From: an uncultured Mycoplasmatota bacterium
GTDB taxonomy: Bacteria; Bacillota_I; Bacilli_A; RF39; UBA660
DNA length: 64,000 bases
Assembly: GCA_946553095.1 (NCBI GenBank)
Contig: CAMNRN010000001.1
Location: forward strand, 58,899-122,898
Direction: 5' to 3'
The translations under genes and the position numbers were made by a program. Position 1 is the stretch's first letter. Each line of letters opens with the position of its first letter. Shown piece after piece: positions 3,976 to 20,395 of the stretch. A model generated the notes under the pieces. It was given only the letters and a program-made list of their open reading frames with translations. It had not been told where the DNA came from and did not search any database.

Positions 3976-4809
3976 ATGGCAATTAAACATTATAAACCCG
4001 TGACGAATGGACGTCGTGGAATGACTTCACTAACTAACGAAGAACTTACCAAAAATGTAACTCCTACAAAGAGTCTACTAAAAAGTGTTAGTAAAACTGG
4101 TGGTAGAAATAACCAAGGAAAAATGACAGTACGCCATATTGGTGGGGGAGCAAAACGTAAGTATCGTGTAATCGATTATAAAAGAAACAAAATCGGTATA
4201 ACTGGACGTGTAGCTTCTATTGAATATGATCCAAATCGTACTGCAAATATCGCTTTAATAAACTATAAAGATGGAGAAAAAAGATATATTATCGCTCCAA
4301 ATGGTTTAGAAGTAGGAATGATTATTGAAAATGGTCCAGAAGCTGATATTAAAGTAGGAAATTCACTACCTCTTGCAAATATTCCTGTTGGAACAACTGT
4401 TCATTGTGTTGAATTAAAACCAGGAAAAGGTGCCGAACTTTGTCGTAGTGCTGGATCAAGTGCTCAAATACTTGGCCGTGAAGGAAAATATGTCATGATT
4501 AGACTTCAATCTGGCGAAACAAGACTAGTATTAGGAACATGTATTGCAACAATTGGTAGTGTTGGTAATGAAGATTACAAATTAGTAAATTTAGGAAAAG
4601 CTGGACGTAAACGTCATATGGGAGTTCGTCCTACAAATCGTGGTTCAGTAATGAATCCAAACGATCACCCACATGGTGGTGGAGAAGGTCGTGCCCCTAT
4701 TGGACGTAAGAGTCCAATGACTCCATGGGGTAAACCTGCGCTTGGAGTTAAAACTCGTAAATCTAAGAAAGCTTCTGAAAAATTAATCGTAAGTAGGAAG
4801 AAGAAATAG
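3976..4809 (+). CDS. rplB: 50S ribosomal protein L2
   Basis: 277 aa. [15 protein letters not shown]-terminus and the HPHGGGEG motif. Confidence 0.97.
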
Positions 4810-4819
4810 GAGGATATAA

Positions 4820-5083
4820 ATGGCAAGAAGTTTAAAAAAAGGACCTTACGTTGCACCATCATTAATGAAAAAGGTTCAAGAAATGAATAAAAATAATAAA
4901 AAGACGGTTATTAAAACTTGGTCAAGAAGATCAACTATTTTTCCTGATTTTGTAGGTCATACATTAGCAGTACACAATGGTAAAGATTTTATTCCAGTTT
5001 ATATAACAGAAGACATGGTTGGACACAAATTAGGAGAGTTTTCAGCAACTCGTAAATTTACAGGCCATGCCGGAAATAAATAG
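4820..5083 (+). CDS. rpsS: 30S ribosomal protein S19
   Basis: 87 aa. [21 protein letters not shown]. Confidence 0.96.
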
Positions 5084-5091
5084 GAGGTATT

Positions 5092-5439
5092 ATGGAAGCA
5101 TATGCAATTCACAAAAACGCTTTGATTAAACCCCGTTTAGCACGGATGACAATGGATTTAATTAGAGGAAAAGATGTAGCAACAGCTCGTGGAATTTTAG
5201 AAAACACGAATACAAAAGCTAGTCGTTTAATTTATAAAGTATTAAACTCAGCTGTTGCCAATGCTGTTAATAACAATGGTGCTGATGAATCTAGCCTAGT
5301 TATCAAAGAATGTTACATAAACCCAGGACCTGTTTATAAAAGAATTAAATTTGCCAGTCGTGGAAATGTCGATCGTCATGATAAAAGAAGTAGTCACATC
5401 ACTGTGTGTGTAACAGACGAAGGGAAAGGAGCGAAATAA
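5092..5439 (+). CDS. rplV: 50S ribosomal protein L22
   Basis: 115 aa. [15 protein letters not shown]22 signature. Confidence 0.94.
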
Positions 5440-5441
5440 TT

Positions 5442-6119
5442 ATGGGACAAAAAGTAAATCCAATAGGGTATAGATTAGGTGTTAATAAAGAATGGCAATC
5501 TCGTTGGTATTCTAAAGATGCTTATTCTAAAAATTTACTAAATGATATTAAAATTCGTGAATATGTTGAAAAGAATTTAAAAGAAGCAGCCATTGCCTCT
5601 GTAGTTATTGAGCGTAAAAAAGATCGTACTGATGTTACGATGTACACAGCTAAACCAGGAGTAATCATTGGTCGCGGCGGTGAAGATATTGAAAAATTAC
5701 GAAAGAAAATTGCTAAACTTGTAGGAGAAGAAATCTATATTAATATTGTTGAAGAAAAAAATCCTGATTTAAATGCTCAACTAGTAGCAAATAATATAGC
5801 ATTACAAATAGAAGCTCGTGCACCATTTAGATCAGCTCAAAAAAGAGCTATCAGAAATACAATGAAAGCTGGAGCAAAAGGATGTAAAACATCTGTATCA
5901 GGACGCCTAGGTGGAGCAGAAATGGCTCGTACTGAAGGATACACTGAAGGAACAGTACCACTTCATACAATTAGAGCGGATGTTGATTATGCAACCGCTG
6001 AGGCTAACACTACGTATGGAAAAATAGGTGTTAAAGTTTGGATCTATAAAGATGAAATACTTCCTGCAAAAAAAACAGTGAAGGGAGCTGATAAAAATGT
6101 TGATGCCAAAGAGAACTAA
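5442..6119 (+). CDS. rpsC: 30S ribosomal protein S3
   Basis: The canonical S3 start [13 protein letters not shown] lies at ATG 5442. The track ORF starts 12 codons earlier inside rplV. KH and S3-C domains present. Confidence 0.95.
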
Positions 6120-6534
6120 ATATCGTAAAAGTCATAGAATTAGTTATGATGGTAAAGCCAAAGGAAATGTGGAACTACATTTTGGTGAATACGGTCTTAA
6201 AGCTGTAGAAGGCGGATGGATTTCAGCTCGTCAAATTGAAGCAGCTCGTATAGCTATGACCCGTTTTATGAAACGTGGTGGAAAAGTATATATAAATATA
6301 TTCCCTCATATGCCAAGAACTAAAAAACCTCTTGAAACTCGTCAAGGTAAAGGTAAAGGTTCAGTAGATGAATGGGTAGCAGTAGTAAAAAATGGCAAGA
6401 TTATGTTTGAAATAGAAGGTGTTACTGAAGAAATAGCTCGTGAAGCACTTCGTTTAGCATCACATAAATTGTCAGTTAAAACTAAATTTGTTAAAAAAGA
6501 ACTTGTAAAGGATGGTGATTCTCTTGGAAATTAA
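6097..6534 (+). CDS. rplP: 50S ribosomal protein L16
   Basis: 145 aa. [12 protein letters not shown]16 N-terminus. Overlaps the rpsC end. Confidence 0.95.
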
Positions 6535-6733
6535 TGAACTAAGAAAATTATCTAATGAAGAATTAACTAAAAAAATTAATGAAACTAAAGATGAATTATT
6601 TCAAAAGAGAATGGCTCATGCCACAGGCGCTCTTGAAAAACCAAGAGAGCTTCGCACATTGAGAAGAGATGTTGCAAAAATGAAAACAATATTAAAAGAA
6701 AGAGAACTTAAGGAGGGAATAAAAAATGACTGA
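6512..6733 (+). CDS. rpmC: 50S ribosomal protein L29
   Basis: 73 aa. The ..ELR.LS.EEL...I.E.K.ELF.KRM..ATG pattern matches L29. The exact start is uncertain (ATG 6512, GTG 6515 or TTG 6524). Confidence 0.85.
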
Positions 6734-7707: not shown

Positions 7708-8247
7708 ATGAGTAATTTTAAAGAATTATATAATAAAGAAATAATTTCAAGTCTTACTAAAGAATTCAACTATAAAACAGTTATGGCAGTGCCTAAACTA
7801 GAAAAAATAGTTGTAAATATGGGTGTAGGCGACGGCTCTAAAGATGAAAAATTCATTACTGCTGCTGTCAAAGACTTAGAACTTATAACTGGGCAAAAGC
7901 CAATTGTAACTAAAGCTCGTAAATCTATTGCTGGATTTAAAATTCGTGAAGGGCAACCTGTTGGGGTTAAAGTTACACTAAGAGGAGAAAATATGTATTA
8001 CTTCTTAGAAAAACTAGTTAAAGTAGCTCTACCAAGAGTAAGAGATTTTCGTGGTGTATCACCTCATGCTTTCGATGGAAAAGGAAATTATACAATTGGT
8101 ATTAAAGAACAACTAATCTTTCCTGAAATCGAATATGATGATGTCGTAAAGGTACGTGGTATGGATATTATATTTGTTACTACGGCTAAAAGCAATGAAG
8201 AAGCTAAAAGTTTATTAAAAGGCTTTGGAATGCCTTTCAAGAATTAA
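7708..8247 (+). CDS. rplE: 50S ribosomal protein L5
   Basis: 179 aa. L5 motifs ([19 protein letters not shown]). Confidence 0.96.
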
Positions 8248-8257
8248 GGAGGACATT

Positions 8258-8443
8258 ATGGCAAGAAAAAGTATGATTGTTAAAAATAAAAGAGCACCAA
8301 AATTTTCTACTCGCGCTTACACTCGTTGTAATCGATGTGGAAGACCTCACAGTGTCTTAAAAAAATATGGAATCTGTCGTATTTGCTTTAGAGAACTTGC
8401 AAATGAAGGCAAATTACCAGGCGTAAAGAAATCAAGTTGGTAA
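8258..8443 (+). CDS. rpsZ: 30S ribosomal protein S14 type Z (zinc-binding, 61 aa)
   Basis: [12 protein letters not shown]...[25 protein letters not shown] has the C4 zinc motif. ATG at 8258 sits behind RBS GGAGGA, whereas the track ORF starts in the rplE tail. Confidence 0.93.
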
Positions 8444-15530: not shown

Positions 15531-15872
15531 ATGAAATATAGAAAATTAGGAAGAGAAACAAGAATTAGACGTAGTATTTTAGCGAGTCTAACTAAAGATT
15601 GCATAATGAATGAATCAGTTGTAACTACTGAAGCACGTGCCAAAGAAGTTCGTAAGTTCGTAGAAAAAATGATTACATATGGTAAAAATGGTACTTTAGT
15701 ATCTCGTCGTAAAGCATTAGCTTTTCTACATAATGATAATGAAGTGGTAAAAAAAGTATTCAATGATCTTGCTAAAAGATATGAAACTAGAGATGGTGGA
15801 TATACAAGAATCATTAAACTTAAAGAACGCCGTGGCGATGATGCTTTGGAAGTTAAACTAGAATTAGTGTAA
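15531..15872 (+). CDS. rplQ: 50S ribosomal protein L17
   Basis: 113 aa. [16 protein letters not shown] is an L17 motif. Confidence 0.95.
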
Positions 15873-15874
15873 AA

Positions 15875-15898
15875 TAGTCAAAAGAAGACTATTTTTTT
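15875..15898 (+). terminator. rho-independent terminator after rplQ (TAGTC-7nt-GACTA + T7)
   Basis: 5-bp inverted repeat 15875-15879/15887-15891, followed by TTTTTTT. Confidence 0.5.
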
Positions 15899-15957
15899 GT
15901 TTTACTAAAATAAGTATAAATTAATAATTCTTAACCATACCAATAAGGGAGGTAAAA

Positions 15958-16149
15958 ATGAAAGAACAAAATTGTGATAGTTGCAAGGATGCCAAATTTG
16001 GTATTGCTTATATCGACCAGGAGACAGGAATACTTTGTAGTAAAATAGATACAGATATGAAGCTACCAATAGGAAAAAAGATTCTTGCCCCTCAAATATG
16101 TACTAAATGTGGTACAACATCATGGAAAACTATTGATAATCAAGAATAA
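15958..16149 (+). CDS. small Cys4 zinc-ribbon protein (63 aa), function unknown
   Basis: CDSC...(37 aa)...CTKCG. Strong RBS AAGGGAGG. Flanked by terminators on both sides. Confidence 0.6.
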   Translation: MKEQNCDSCKDAKFGIAYIDQETGILCSKIDTDMKLPIGKKILAPQICTKCGTTSWKTIDNQE

Positions 16150-16172
16150 AGTGCTAATAAACACTTTTTTTT
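16149..16172 (+). terminator. rho-independent terminator (AAGTG-8nt-CACTT + T8)
   Basis: Inverted repeat 16149-16153/16162-16166 followed by a T-run. Overlaps the stop of the small ORF. Confidence 0.5.
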
Positions 16173-16281
16173 GTGGTTAAATCAACGAATTTAACTATTC
16201 GCCTATTGTCAAAGAATGGCCTTTGTGATATTATTATCTTGTCGCTTAAAATGACAAATTAAAAAAAAGTGAAATTTGTTG

Positions 16282-16309
16282 TTGACATTTTAAAAAAAAT
16301 ATGTATAAT
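16282..16309 (+). promoter_or_regulatory. near-consensus sigma-A promoter of the surface island (-35 TTGACA, 16-nt spacer with TG, -10 TATAAT)
   Basis: TTGACA at 16282-16287, TG at 16302-16303, TATAAT at 16304-16309. RBS AAAGGAGAGGG precedes the ATG at 16375. Confidence 0.6.
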
Positions 16310-16374
16310 AGTAACCATTAGATTTTTTTGACGCGGATAGTCGAAAAAAATAAAAGGAGAGGGATTGGTTAGAT

Positions 16375-18492
16375 ATGAAGAAAAATAAAAAGAATTTAAA
16401 AACAAGAATAGCAGCATTTGCTTTAGCGGCTGCAACTTTCTTCGGAGGAGTTAAGGCTTGTAATGAAATAAAAGAACATGAGCCAAACGAAGATTCGGAA
16501 ATTAATACCGAATTTAATATAGGGGACACGCCTAGTTCAGAATCAACTATAAAACCTTCTGTACCAGGACATGACCACAACCATAATAACAGTAATAATA
16601 ATCAAAATAATCAAGTAGTTCAAAACGAAGAAGAACCTAAAGAAGATGATATGGTTAAACCAGGTGAAGGATATATTAATGATGAAGGTTCTAAAAAGCC
16701 AAGCGGTAAACCAAGTGTTAAACCTAGTACAGACGAAAGCATCGACAAAGGCGAAAATGACAAAGAAGATGTTACTAAGGAAGAAACGCCAAACGCAAGT
16801 GATAATGAAGAAGCTGACAAAGAAAATTCATCTAGCTTAGATACTGAAACACCAAGCGATTCTCAAGAAAATCAAGAAAATGAAAATAAAAATGAGAATA
16901 ATAAACCAAATGAGTCTAAGCCTGAAAAACCTGGTAATGAAAATAAACCAAGTAAACCGGATACAACTAAGCCAGATAGCAAACCAGATAATAAACCGGA
17001 TAGTAAGCCAGATAATAAACCAGAAGTAAAACCACCAGTAGAAGAACCTGGAATTGATGAACCAGAAATTGACGAACCAGAACATGAACATTTATTTAAC
17101 TTAGTTATATCAACTTACTATACTTATGATAATGATACACATAATGTATGTAATGTTATAGCTTGTGAATGTGGTATAGAACAAGAAGTTGTAGTTAAAT
17201 CAGTTTCTCATAGTTTTACTAAAAATGACAATGGTGATGGCACTGTAACATATACTTGTGAATGTGGATATTCAAAAACAGAATCAATTGTAATTACGCC
17301 ACCTGAAAAAGAACATAAACACGACTATACAAAAGAAGTAAGTGCAAGCTATGCTGGAAATGATGAACATAGAATCGTAGAAACATATACATGTTCAAAC
17401 GAAGATGGAAAGTGTGACAATATAACATATACAAAAGAATTAGGAACAGAAGCATGTGGCTATGAAGATGGTGTATGCCAAACGTGCGGACACGTAAAAG
17501 AAGTCGTAAAAGAACACGAACATGACTATACAAAAGAAATAAGTGCTAGTTATGCCGGAAATGATCAACATACATTAACAGCAACATATACATGTTCAAA
17601 TGAAGATGGAAAATGTGACAGTGTATCATATACAGAAGAATTAGGAACAGAAGCATGTGGCTATGAAGATGGAGTATGTCAAACATGTGGACACGTAAAA
17701 GAAGTTGTAAAAGAACACGAACATGACTATACAAAAGAAATAAGCGCTAGTTATGCCGGAAATGATCAACATACATTAACAGCAACATATACATGTTCAA
17801 ATGAAGACGGAAAATGTGATAAAGAATCATATTCAGAAGAATTAGGAACAGAAACATGTGGATATGAAAATGGTGTATGTCAAACCTGTGGTCATACAAA
17901 AGAAATAGAACACAAACATGACTACCAATTAGTAGAAAGTAACATTACATCTGGCGGAGGAAGCCACACTATAAATGAAAAATATGAATGTAAAGGTGAA
18001 GGAATCTGTGATAATCCATCCTATGAAAATACATCTACAGAAGCTTGTACACCAGGAAACTGGGAATCAGTAGATGGTCAAGATATTAGAAGATGTACTG
18101 TATGTGGAGATACATTAGAAATTGCTGAATCACACACTTGTGTACCAGTGCTTGATCCAAACGCAGATCCATGCCAAGGTTATGACACAGTTTGTGAAAC
18201 ATGTGGAAAAGCAATGACTATTGAAGGGACACATAATTATTATTACTTAGGCGAAGAAGACGGCATGGATGTTTACGTATGTGACCACTGTGGAGACTTA
18301 CTAGAAGTCCCAAAAGTTCAAGTTCCTGAAGAAAACAACGATGAAACTAACGAACTAGAAAATCCTGAAATAGAAATGATTGAACCTCCACTATATAGTG
18401 ATATACCAACAGAACAAGAAGAAACTACAAATACAGTTTTAACTGAAAGTGAATTGAGTTTGGTTAGAACTCGTAAAGATTATGCTCGTTAA
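16375..18492 (+). CDS. secreted Cys-rich tandem-repeat protein, probable lipoprotein (705 aa)
   Basis: Signal peptide with the Cys-containing motif ...FFGGVKAC. A low-complexity N/E/K/P/D region (KPDS/KPDN periodicity). Then three 67-aa tandem modules carrying paired C..C motifs (YTCSNEDGKCD...CGYEDGVCQTCGH) plus further CxxC modules. Confidence 0.75.
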   Translation: MKKNKKNLKTRIAAFALAAATFFGGVKACNEIKEHEPNEDSEINTEFNIGDTPSSESTIKPSVPGHDHNHNNSNNNQNNQVVQNEEEPKEDDMVKPGEGYINDEGSKKPSGKPSVKPSTDESIDKGENDKEDVTKEETPNASDNEEADKENSSSLDTETPSDSQENQENENKNENNKPNESKPEKPGNENKPSKPDTTKPDSKPDNKPDSKPDNKPEVKPPVEEPGIDEPEIDEPEHEHLFNLVISTYYTYDNDTHNVCNVIACECGIEQEVVVKSVSHSFTKNDNGDGTVTYTCECGYSKTESIVITPPEKEHKHDYTKEVSASYAGNDEHRIVETYTCSNEDGKCDNITYTKELGTEACGYEDGVCQTCGHVKEVVKEHEHDYTKEISASYAGNDQHTLTATYTCSNEDGKCDSVSYTEELGTEACGYEDGVCQTCGHVKEVVKEHEHDYTKEISASYAGNDQHTLTATYTCSNEDGKCDKESYSEELGTETCGYENGVCQTCGHTKEIEHKHDYQLVESNITSGGGSHTINEKYECKGEGICDNPSYENTSTEACTPGNWESVDGQDIRRCTVCGDTLEIAESHTCVPVLDPNADPCQGYDTVCETCGKAMTIEGTHNYYYLGEEDGMDVYVCDHCGDLLEVPKVQVPEENNDETNELENPEIEMIEPPLYSDIPTEQEETTNTVLTESELSLVRTRKDYAR
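17311..17913 (+). repeat. 3 x 201-bp near-identical tandem direct repeats inside the Cys-rich protein gene
   Basis: The units start at 17311, 17512 and 17713. Copies 2 and 3 differ by about 2 nt over their first 108 nt. The antisense track ORFs beginning MYSHVRVLL at 17294-17533 and 17546-17734 mirror the same repeat. Confidence 0.85.
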
Positions 18493-18504
18493 AATATTGA
18501 AAGG

Positions 18505-19320
18505 ATGAAAGAAATGAAAAAGGGAGAAAAAAAATGGTATACATCTGTTAGTAATATCTTAATGATAATAGCATGTATTATATTAGTACCTATATTAATT
18601 ATTAACATTTGGATTATGATTCAATCCAAAACTAATGAAGATGCAGTTCCAAGTGTCTTTGGCATCAAACCATTTCTTGTTCTCTCTGGTTCAATGGAAA
18701 GTGATATCCACAAAGGAGACTTGATTCTTACAAAAATAGTTCCAGAAGAAGAATTAGACAATTTAAAAGTTGGTGAGGTAATCGCCTTTAGAGATGCTGA
18801 AAATACTGTCACAACACATAGAATAAAAGATATTGTTGAAAAAGATGGAAACAAGTATTTCATAACAAAAGGAGATGCCAACTCATCACAAGATTTAAAT
18901 TTAGTTTCTCTAGATGACGTCGAAGGAATCTATATTGCTAGAATTCCAGGAATCGGTTCCATGATGGATTCGTTATCAAAACCGACAACTATCTTAATAG
19001 TAGTTTTAGGAATAACTGTTATCTTTGTAATAGGTTATGCTATCTCTAACAAAAAGATTAGAGAAGAAGAAAGAAAAGAATTTTTAGAATTCAAAAAACT
19101 GAAAGAAGAAATGGAAGTTAATTCCAAGACCAAGAAAACGAAGTCTATAAAAGCTGAAGAAGACGAAGAGCTTCTTAAAGAGGAAGGGGAGAAACCTCAA
19201 GCAAAGAAGAAAACAAGTACTGCAACAAAGAGAAAACCGACAACAACACCTAAGAAGAAAGAAACAACAGCAACAAAGAAGAGTACGAGTACTTCTAAAA
19301 AAACTAAGTCGAGTAAATAG
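18505..19320 (+). CDS. sipW: Sec11/SipW-type signal peptidase I (S26B) with ~100-aa K/S/T-rich C-terminal tail
   Basis: 271 aa. N-terminal TM, catalytic SGSMES and THRI motifs of ER/archaeal-type signal peptidases, a second TM, then a Lys/Thr/Ser-rich tail. Confidence 0.8.
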   Translation: MKEMKKGEKKWYTSVSNILMIIACIILVPILIINIWIMIQSKTNEDAVPSVFGIKPFLVLSGSMESDIHKGDLILTKIVPEEELDNLKVGEVIAFRDAENTVTTHRIKDIVEKDGNKYFITKGDANSSQDLNLVSLDDVEGIYIARIPGIGSMMDSLSKPTTILIVVLGITVIFVIGYAISNKKIREEERKEFLEFKKLKEEMEVNSKTKKTKSIKAEEDEELLKEEGEKPQAKKKTSTATKRKPTTTPKKKETTATKKSTSTSKKTKSSK

Positions 19321-19443
19321 ACTTAGAGTGTAAATTTGGTAAACCCTCGAAAGAGTGTTTATATAGATAGGATGCTATTATTCATCCTGTGCATAGTACT
19401 ATGCATAATGATAAATTTGCATGAAAAAGGAGGTGAAAACGAA

Positions 19444-20292
19444 ATGAAAAAGAAAAGTATGGCTTTAGGAGCATTATTAATGGCAGTTGCAGTTACTGGA
19501 TATTCAGTAAGTGGAACATATGCTAAATATACATCTTCTATAGATATTACTGATGAAGCTAGAGTAGCTAAATGGGGATTTAATGCAACAGATAAAAATG
19601 GTAATCTTACTACAGAAAATACTATTGATTTATTCAGCCAATCATATTCAATTAATGGAACTGATAATGAACTAAAATATGTTCTATCTTCAAACACTGA
19701 TAAGGTGGTTGCACCAGGAACAAAAGGTTCTTATGAATTCCAACTTGAAGGTGAAGTTGAAACTAGATATGCATTATTATTCGCTATTGATGAAAATAAA
19801 AATACTGATATAGTAGTTTACTACTCATTAGATGCTGAAGGAAATATTGACAGAAAATCTACTACTCCATTTGACGGAGCATTAGAATATCGTCCAATTA
19901 GATATACAGTAAAATATACTAGAGGAGATAGCGAAGAAGACTTAACTAAAGGACTTTTGACAAATCTAGATTCTAAAACTCTAATTAACGCTTTAAAAGG
20001 CGAAACTGAAAGAGAATATGCAGCTGGAGAATTTAATCAAAAGTATGTAATTAGTTGGGAATGGGCACCTAGAAATGCAACAAATAATGCAACAGATAAA
20101 GGCGCATTATCAAAAACAAATGTAGACATTCTAGATACATTTGCTGGACAAGAAATTGTAAAAGCAATGAACGAAGAAGGAAATACATTTGGTCAAGTAA
20201 AATTTGATGTTAAGATTACTGCTAACCAAGTTACTGCTAACCAAGCTGATTATAATGATGATGGTGAATCAAGTAAAGCAGTTGTTAAATAA
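19444..20292 (+). CDS. TasA/camelysin-like protein with SipW-cognate-type signal peptide (putative fibre subunit)
   Basis: 282 aa from ATG 19444 (RBS AAAGGAGGTG); the track ORF starts upstream at 19336. MKKKSMALGALLMAVAVTGYSVSGTYAKYTSS resembles the GGGTWAAFND region of TasA and the TIGR04088 class. Sits immediately downstream of the sipW homolog. Confidence 0.55.
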   Translation: MKKKSMALGALLMAVAVTGYSVSGTYAKYTSSIDITDEARVAKWGFNATDKNGNLTTENTIDLFSQSYSINGTDNELKYVLSSNTDKVVAPGTKGSYEFQLEGEVETRYALLFAIDENKNTDIVVYYSLDAEGNIDRKSTTPFDGALEYRPIRYTVKYTRGDSEEDLTKGLLTNLDSKTLINALKGETEREYAAGEFNQKYVISWEWAPRNATNNATDKGALSKTNVDILDTFAGQEIVKAMNEEGNTFGQVKFDVKITANQVTANQADYNDDGESSKAVVK

Positions 20293-20310
20293 TTATAAAT
20301 TGACATCAAT

Positions 20311-20363
20311 GGAAGTTGTTTAACTTCCAAATAAGCCTATGAACGTCATAGGTTTATTTGGAA
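20311..20363 (+). terminator. compound hairpin / intrinsic terminator between the TasA-like gene and the giant adhesin gene
   Basis: GGAAGTT-4nt-AACTTCC (20311-20328) overlaps a long stem TTCCAAATAAGCCTATGA-acg-TCATAGGtTTATTTGGAA (20325-20363) that ends in a T-rich tract. Confidence 0.55.
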
Positions 20364-20395
20364 ACTAAATACTGAATAAGGGGAGGAGCCAATCT

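Follow-up and report, generated by a model that had tools for sequence, protein, structure and literature searches.

In the tapA-sipW-tasA operon of Bacillus subtilis, the accessory protein TapA initiates or anchors TasA fibers (PMC10151520, PMC9674648). The sipW-tasA-calY locus of Bacillus cereus encodes a lineage-restricted protein, CapP (BC1280), which is associated with the cell wall and has been proposed to act as a chaperone of fiber assembly (bioRxiv 10.1101/2024.02.27.582368). In a further group of surface proteins, the Periscope proteins (SasG/Aap, Rib, and the SHIRT-domain protein Sgo_0707), the DNA identity of tandem repeats has been proposed to drive recombinational length change (PMC8201768). 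Here, we compared these systems with a gene at positions 16375 to 18492 (+ strand) of a 64,000-nucleotide (nt) stretch of DNA from an uncultured Mycoplasmatota bacterium, referred to below as the window. This open reading frame (ORF) encodes a protein of 705 amino acids (aa) with 32 Cys and 26 His residues and is followed by a gene for a SipW-type signal peptidase. An earlier reading of the gene, made from the letters alone (the sequence-only reading), had described a Cys-rich lipoprotein with three nearly identical tandem repeats at the head of a SipW island.

Like TapA (YqxM), the window protein is encoded by the first gene of its operon, immediately 5′ of sipW and a TasA-type gene, and is an exported protein with conserved Cys residues. 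TapA is a protein of 253 aa whose signal is of the SipW type; it carries an N-terminal donor strand, one immunoglobulin-like domain, and few conserved Cys residues. The window protein is 705 aa long, has a signal of the lipobox type, and places an array of Cys/His mini-domains behind a long acidic linker. It resembles CapP in being a lineage-restricted accessory protein of a sipW-tasA locus with a repetitive part, but CapP is reported to be processed by SipW and is not rich in Cys or His (bioRxiv 10.1101/2024.02.27.582368). With the Periscope proteins it may share a surface location and tandem, similar, folded β domains. We interpret the window protein as a membrane-tethered, metal-stabilized stalk or assembly factor of a TasA-type fiber system, a tentative interpretation to which we give slightly less than an even chance. 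What is unusual here is the strict pairing with SipW/TasA-like cassettes, together with the module itself; surface proteins commonly contain tandem repeats.

Pairing of the gene with a SipW cassette

SipW was found directly downstream of the Cys/His protein in all six lineages with readable gene context (the window, L005/L090, L006 to L008, L009, L099, and L100), with a gap of 12 to 26 nt between the two genes. In the window the gap is 12 nt, and the peptidase matches TIGR02228 with 89.5 bits (cutoff, 51.85) and is 64 to 71% identical to the SipW that follows every homolog. The description of the gene as the first of a SipW island therefore holds in every one of these lineages. Four lineages have contigs long enough to show what comes after SipW (the window, L005/L090, L006, and L100), and in all four the next gene encodes the 282-aa protein or a homolog of it; three of them (the window, L005/L090, and L006) continue with a giant cadherin-like protein (50 to 55% identity), followed by a second S24 peptidase. 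Beyond the cassette, the flanking sequence changes from lineage to lineage, and the cassette occupies different chromosomal sites. Within it, the Cys/His protein is the fastest-diverging part, at approximately 30% identity. In the window, the island spans positions 16375 to 28080, between the ribosomal operon and parAB, and none of 80 related rpoA-L17 loci contains it. The genes that follow the Cys/His protein in the island are listed here.

18505 to 19320, + strand: SipW-type signal peptidase 1
19444 to 20292, + strand: TasA-like fiber subunit candidate of 282 aa, with the N terminus …SVSGTYAKYTSS…DEARVAKW
20396 to 24544, + strand: membrane-anchored protein of 1,382 aa with six cadherin-like β-sandwich domains (Pfam PF12733, E = 7.5e-70)
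24523 to 25242, + strand: second S24/S26 signal peptidase
25254 to 25805, + strand: 183-aa protein with a TasA-type N terminus, after the second signal peptidase
25816 to 28080, + strand: 754-aa protein

The 282-aa protein has at least 523 homologs, a family without a Pfam domain, and it gave no match in Pfam, in NCBIfam, or among PDB sequences. Its N-terminal signature, …G-T-Y-A-K-Y…A-R-V-A-K-W, is invariant or nearly so among the 88 homologs compared. An AlphaFold2 model of the protein (predicted local distance difference test score [pLDDT] of 74) had as its top Foldseek match in the PDB the TasA fiber 8AUR (E = 2.4e-3, probability 0.90). The presence of SipW, the N-terminal motif, and the match to 8AUR together make a TasA-type fiber system the best reading of the cassette. 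We also observed that the cadherin-like giants keep the sequence L-I-T-S-C-S-C-T-S directly after the N-terminal membrane helix (window positions 20396 to 20560 and the equivalents in L005 and L006).

Architecture of the protein and history of its array

From the N terminus to the C terminus, the gene contains the following features.

16375 to 16461, + strand: signal peptide with a lipobox-like V-K-A-C and a putative lipidation site at Cys29
16462 to 17082, + strand: acidic, disordered low-complexity linker rich in Pro, Asn, and Lys (aa 30 to 236, 207 aa; isoelectric point, 4.3), without Cys
16570 to 16584, + strand: N-proximal H-D-H-N-H motif (aa 66 to 70)
17083 to 17310, + strand: degenerate Cys/His premodule (aa 237 to 312) with an HEHLF start and two CxC knuckles
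17311 to 17511, + strand: repeat unit 1 (67-aa module)
17512 to 17712, + strand: repeat unit 2, recombinant, with positions 0 to 107 like unit 3 (97.2%) and positions 123 to 200 like unit 1 (92.3%)
17713 to 17913, + strand: repeat unit 3
17914 to 18138, + strand: diverged fourth copy of the module (aa 513 to 588; 64 bits against the module profile)
18139 to 18309, + strand: two more CxxC mini-units (aa 589 to 645), with a weak match to Pfam DUF7479 that is under the cutoff
18310 to 18492, + strand: acidic C-terminal tail of approximately 60 aa with a short amphipathic basic end (…SELSLVRTRKDYAR), followed by the stop codon

The protein begins with MKKNKKNLKTRIAAFALAAATFFGGVKAC, and its lipobox region reads MKKNKKNLKTRIAAFALAAATFFGGV-K-A-C29. 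Compared with the pattern [LVI][ASTVI][GAS]-C, the Val at −3, the Ala at −1, and the Cys at +1 conform, and the Lys at position −2 is atypical. A Cys residue stands at the end of the hydrophobic segment in eight of nine family members (LTAC, TTGC, TSAC, ATGC, NASC, or similar), which supports lipid anchoring. The unqualified term lipoprotein used in the sequence-only reading was thus too strong for a V-K-A-C site, but the placement of the Cys across the family favors it. In the linker, the reported KPDS/KPDN tract with a 12-nt period is real and lies at 16951 to 17030 (period 12 with 4.8 copies at 16968 to 17024; period 24 over 16951 to 17030). An HxH(xH) motif near the N terminus recurs in seven of the nine listed family members; P0031 and P0038 have none in their first 75 aa. 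The tails of the family are alike as well (window positions 18430 to 18489; P0002 to P0004 and P0028 to P0031), being acidic and then passing into a short segment of alternating hydrophobic and basic residues, with endings such as …LSLVRTRKDYAR, …EAYTFKPL, …RSYTLRPKKMN, and …VVYTKKLPLM. This conserved segment could be an interaction strand or a donor-type strand.

All 31 Cys residues other than Cys29, together with 22 His residues, fall within aa 237 to 645, which hold the premodule, the three units, the diverged fourth copy, and the two small CxxC units. Degenerate Cys modules thus follow the array, as had been noted (aa 513 to 645), and similar ones also precede it (aa 237 to 313). Tandem Repeats Finder placed the array at 17307 to 17885 with a period of 201, 2.9 copies, 90% matches, and a score of 920. 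The in-frame units start at 17311, 17512, and 17713, and each encodes a 67-aa module with the pattern H-x-H-D-Y…H…Y-T-C-x6-C-D…C-x6-C-x2-C-G-H. These results bear out the existence and coordinates of the 201-base-pair (bp) array; near identity, by contrast, is only local, since over whole units the DNA identity is 87.6% between units 1 and 2, 89.6% between units 2 and 3, and 80.1% between units 1 and 3. Locally, 3 differences separate units 2 and 3 in the first 108 nt, where about 2 had been counted before, and 6 separate units 1 and 2 in the last 78 nt.

The distribution of these differences revealed that unit 2 is chimeric. At the sites where units 1 and 3 differ, unit 2 agrees with unit 3 at 15 of 16 sites to the left of approximately position 95; to the right, it agrees with unit 1 at 16 of 22 sites and is unit 3-like at 6 (P = 0.0002 in a permutation test of the maximum-chi-square type). 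This mosaic, unit 3-like at the 5′ end and unit 1-like at the 3′ end, indicates that an unequal crossover converted a two-unit array of units 1 and 3 into one of three units; such an event leaves a middle unit whose 5′ part comes from the downstream unit and whose 3′ part comes from the upstream one. A single module has expanded here in a lineage-specific way; units 1 and 3 are its old copies, and unit 2 came later. The synonymous divergence (dS) between units 1 and 3 is 0.69, and the ratio of nonsynonymous to synonymous divergence (dN/dS) of 0.20 to 0.28 in all unit pairs indicates that the units are under purifying selection. The proposal of a recent duplication or gene conversion therefore survives as duplication with recombination, but the dS of units 1 and 3 contradicts a uniformly recent origin. 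Other members have internal duplications of their own, namely a 354-bp repeat in L006 (1.9 copies, 82%) and protein-level repeats in P0003, P0004, and P0029, which shows that module duplication recurs in the family.

We also considered whether the number of units varies. The 90% cluster of the protein has five members. Three units and 705 aa are found in the window and in L002, a 116-kb contig from the Joint Genome Institute (JGI) that is 99.9% identical over 14 kb, and versions with two units are found in L001, L003, and L004. A site-by-site comparison traced both two-unit forms back to the array of three: L001 consists of unit 1 followed by a fusion of the 5′ part of unit 2 with unit 3, with the junction inside a 62-nt exact repeat common to units 2 and 3, and L003 and L004 consist of a fusion of unit 1 with the 3′ part of unit 2 followed by unit 3, with the junction inside a 37-nt exact repeat common to units 1 and 2. 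Forms with such junctions are expected both from homologous recombination and from collapsed short-read assembly. The earlier suggestion of potential copy-number variation is borne out to the extent that contigs with two and with three units exist, although the former come only from a JGI series with lesions and may be collapses. All three two-unit contigs come from this one error-prone assembly series, and we regard a real polymorphism and an artifact as about equally likely.

The case for artifact, in which the two-unit versions are assembly collapses and the array is fixed at three units without meaningful polymorphism in the population, draws on the contigs themselves and in our judgment has an even chance of being correct. 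L001, L003, and L004 all come from JGI samples 3300006139/53/55 and are short (4 to 14 kb; L003 and L004 are 4 to 5 kb long with unrelated 5′ flanks) or bear lesions. In L001, 30 bp are deleted at the 3′ end of secY, and a tandem duplication of 41 bp puts rpoA out of frame; these implausible lesions lie at approximately positions 1520 to 1535 and 4960 to 5045. An ortholog from another Bacilli species shows a parallel case, in that P0020 (865 aa) is P0016 (946 aa) minus exactly one 81-aa module, and P0020 likewise belongs to this sample series (3300006133), with polC split in two on its contig (L090 positions 1 to 2570). In this pair (L090 positions 4001 to 6598; L005 positions 8019 to 8375), the module that P0020 lacks is flanked by a 114-nt direct repeat whose two copies have 83% identity, and the longest exact run in these repeats is 23 nt (L005). 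The lesions in the essential genes secY, rpoA, and polC call for caution with any structural variant from the 33000061xx contigs. Further, both long contigs (116 and 124 kb) have three units, the two junctions coincide with the longest exact repeats (62 and 37 nt), the sites at which de Bruijn graphs collapse, and a k-mer-based Logan contig of the same species (L091 positions 1 to 715) breaks within unit 3, making the array an assembly breakpoint. Against collapse, two distinct junctions occur in three samples, homologous recombination would favor the same tracts, and the chimeric unit 2 records at least one past unequal crossover in this array. Scans of metagenome contigs with the protein and with an exact 47-mer found no further alleles. 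Units could plausibly be gained and lost at this repeat by RecA-type recombination, and the variation itself is a proposal.

In L004 (positions 56 to 1498) and L003 (positions 1 to 117), unrelated sequence stands in place of the 5′ part of the lipoprotein gene. In L004 it is a transposase-like gene, UPF0236 (PF06782), which overlaps with what is left of the ORF. This replacement may reflect insertion of an insertion sequence or chimeric assembly.

The module, its predicted metal sites, and a possible role of the protein

For neither the protein nor its modules did we find a model above the cutoff in Pfam or NCBIfam or a match above the threshold in PDB sequences, PHROGs, or phage genomes (tblastn), and a scan of genome contigs with the 705-aa protein found no relative. 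The modules match no curated family or solved fold; the match to a well-known domain that would have counted against the sequence-only reading was not found. A word-indexed search of 5.8 billion proteins returned only four clusters, and an exhaustive profile search of 1.84 billion representatives returned 14 proteins at an E value of ≤0.001. Five of these 14 have the same type of architecture (P0028 to P0031 and P0038), and two are short fragments. P0039 (319 aa) is phage tail-fiber-like, with collagen G-X-Y repeats and the module at its C terminus (aa 248 to 318). Two clostridial-type CBM77/pectate-lyase proteins (P0035 and P0037) contain related modules with the pattern H-x-H-x-Y…C-T-E-x-G…Y-T-C…C. 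The short proteins P0033 and P0034 likewise end in the module. In P0035 and P0037, the variant reads more fully H-x-H-x-Y…A-T-C-T-E-x-G…Y-T-C…C-D-K-K-T-Y…H-x-[YF]…C-x2-C. The window family may belong, as a rare branch, to a broader group of extracellular Cys/His mini-domains that has no annotation.

Whether the module resembles a zinc ribbon, as the sequence-only reading had asked, was addressed with an AlphaFold2 model of unit 2 based on an alignment of 39 modules. The model is that of a confident small β module (mean pLDDT, 85) with three long strands (residues 6 to 16, 19 to 28, and 39 to 48) followed by a short knuckle; Foldseek found nothing significant for it in the PDB (best E = 0.56) or in BFVD (best E = 0.30). 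Like zinc-ribbon and C2H2 domains, the module has units of approximately 30 to 35 aa with four Cys/His ligands and a C-x(1-2)-C-G knuckle. In contrast to those domains, the units are extracellular and set into a long three-stranded sheet that has no PDB fold match, and the sequence matches are below curated thresholds: Pfam zinc ribbons matched 2 to 4 of the 39 modules, only at E values of ≥0.01, and the weak PDB profile matches (best E = 0.0015) were to zinc proteins only (C2H2 fingers, eS27, Rpb12, TFIIS-type ribbons, and rubredoxin). A second likeness, to the collagen-flanked surface repeat (CFSR; Pfam PF19079), is weak and covers the N-G-x-G-T-H…Y-T-C part; 15 of 39 modules matched, with a best E value of 0.002 and all below the 27-bit gathering cutoff, and the window's own units gave no match to PF19079. 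One family member, P0039, is itself collagen flanked. The CFSR has no described function, and a literature search on "collagen-flanked surface repeat" and PF19079 found no paper.

The alignment of 39 modules favors metal of the zinc type over disulfide knots, the two options offered by the sequence-only reading for the Cys pairs. All 39 modules have H4, C28, C56, and C59, and 38 of them have H2. Column 49 contains 22 His residues, 17 Cys residues, and nothing else; an interchange of His and Cys at a fully conserved column is the behavior of a metal ligand and is impossible for disulfide partners. Each module has five Cys residues and the mature protein has 31, odd numbers that make the pairing of all of them impossible. 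Thus, the module has the four conserved Cys/His ligands and the His/Cys interchange of zinc-type domains. Each 67-aa module would contain two four-ligand metal sites, most likely for structural Zn2+, with site A formed by a His of the HxH motif, a further His, and two Cys residues, and site B formed by a Cys or His, the Cys-x2-Cys pair, and a His. We regard the module as undescribed, very rare, and probably metal binding outside the cell.

A stalk or assembly factor built from such modules could work as follows. The protein would be anchored by its lipid, and the linker would cross the wall zone and hold the modules off the membrane, where the metal-stapled array of small β modules would form a rigid distal part. 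As the cell-bound partner of the TasA-like fiber, and as a positional counterpart of TapA or CapP, the protein could anchor or nucleate the fiber or act as a spacer. Its length would depend on how many modules it has, so that gain or loss of a 67-aa unit would change that length.

Several results weigh against this interpretation. The functional link to the fiber system is drawn from gene order, and the TasA-like call for the 282-aa neighbor is weak because its TM-score against 8AUR is low (0.27 to 0.32). Homology to TapA was rejected, as there was no match to TIGR04087 or elsewhere in NCBIfam or Pfam (E ≤ 0.1) and the signal is of the wrong type; neither sequence nor fold similarity connects the protein with TapA or CapP. 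The signal is lipobox-like rather than of the SipW type, and the N terminus is without the G-T-Y-A-x-Y or DEARVAKW-type motif that its neighbor carries. One homolog, P0029, is without the lipobox Cys. Scans of the protein against Pfam and NCBIfam found no adhesive or enzymatic domain to indicate a target of the array, and both the metal binding and the clustering of the ligands are predictions.

A bolder form of the proposal, which we consider doubtful, is that the protein is a new kind of extracellular poly-metal-site array, tethered to the membrane, that initiates or anchors a TasA-type fiber in uncultured gut Bacilli, with an architecture unrelated to that of TapA, which it would replace, or that it is itself a trimeric fiber in which the HxH motif at every module boundary binds metal on the axis. 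The position of the module at the end of P0039 and of P0033 and P0034, together with the weak CFSR matches, is a hint that a trimeric fiber is one setting in which the module can function, and a trimeric fiber would explain why the module ends the collagen-like P0039 and resembles the CFSR. In the tip of the phage T4 long tail fiber, Bartual and colleagues reportedly found metal ions coordinated on the fiber axis in 2010.

Tandem similar β-rich modules on a long linker would also suit a stand-alone fibrillar adhesin or Periscope-type stalk, in which the repeat number tunes the projection of the tip independently of the TasA-like fiber. The occurrence of related modules at the C-terminal tip of P0039 and in the CBM77/pectate-lyase proteins is compatible with such a role, but we think it unlikely. 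The array has just three similar units, with 80 to 90% DNA identity, plus one diverged copy, and it is far shorter and less identical than those of typical Periscope members; its modules belong to another domain family, and the contigs with two units come from an error-prone short-read series. Moreover, no adhesive or ligand-binding head domain was recognizable in Pfam or NCBIfam, the anchor is an N-terminal lipobox rather than a C-terminal wall anchor, and the linkage with SipW is strict.

The abundance of ligands raises the question of whether the protein captures metal, as a scavenger or buffer of Zn or Ni whose adjacency to SipW is incidental. Streptococcal Pht proteins, which are polyhistidine-triad lipoproteins, would offer a parallel for such a metal scavenger, and the mature window protein, with its 26 His and 31 Cys residues, has a conserved N-proximal HxHxH and an HxH at the start of every module. 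However, the order with SipW is strict in the six lineages, with gaps of only 12 to 26 nt, the cassette neighbors that were read include no metal transporter or metalloregulator, and Pfam and NCBIfam searches found no homology to Pht. The conserved ligands also lie inside a confidently folded β module, as is typical of structural sites, and we judge a scavenging role to be rather improbable. Least likely of all are disulfide knots that stabilize an extracellular protein, a structure with which the location and the C-x6-C and CxxC spacings are compatible but which conflicts with the interchange at column 49, the three conserved His residues per module, the odd Cys counts of module and protein, and the relationship to gut anaerobes, whose extracellular thiols, we infer, can stay reduced.

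The 5′ region, host lineage, and meaning of the locus

Upstream of the gene, the following elements precede the ATG.

16246 to 16257 and 16282 to 16293: inverted repeat TTAAAATGACAA / TTGACATTTTAA with 12-nt arms that are 92% complementary and 24 nt apart
16282 to 16309, + strand: predicted sigma-70-type promoter, TTGACA-16 nt-TATAAT, matching the consensus, 66 nt 5′ of the ATG
16354 to 16361, + strand: Shine-Dalgarno sequence (AAGGAGAG), read from the sequence

The promoter is a perfect TTGACA-N16-TATAAT, as had been claimed, and it is the sole 12/12 consensus match within positions 15800 to 25500 (9.7 kb). Because the right arm of the inverted repeat covers the −35 hexamer, the repeat is a candidate operator or repressor site. 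A further TTGTCA element is present at 16206, and an Rfam search of the 5′ region found no riboswitch or leader. Between rplQ and the island, a 63-aa ORF (15958 to 16149, + strand) encodes a CxxC…CxxC protein (CDSCKD…CTKCG) without a Pfam or NCBIfam family match. This ORF was found downstream of L17 in 33 related gut Bacilli loci and is 76 to 92% conserved among the best matches listed. RpoA of the window is 90% identical to that of mouse and rabbit metagenome-assembled genomes, 87% identical to that of "Candidatus Onthocola," and 83% identical to that of CAG:609, which places the host among uncultured gut Bacilli.

TasA-type fibers are a widespread biofilm scaffold, and how they start and are fixed to the cell is understood only in Bacillus, through TapA and CapP. 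In uncultured gut Bacilli, the locus described here suggests another fiber partner, one that is strictly co-located. If the metal reading is true, its modules would provide an uncommon example of zinc-type domains that are arrayed in tandem and act outside the cell, and one that is tractable for structural and metal analysis. The history of crossover also makes the array a reasonable marker of strain-level length variation, once long reads exist.

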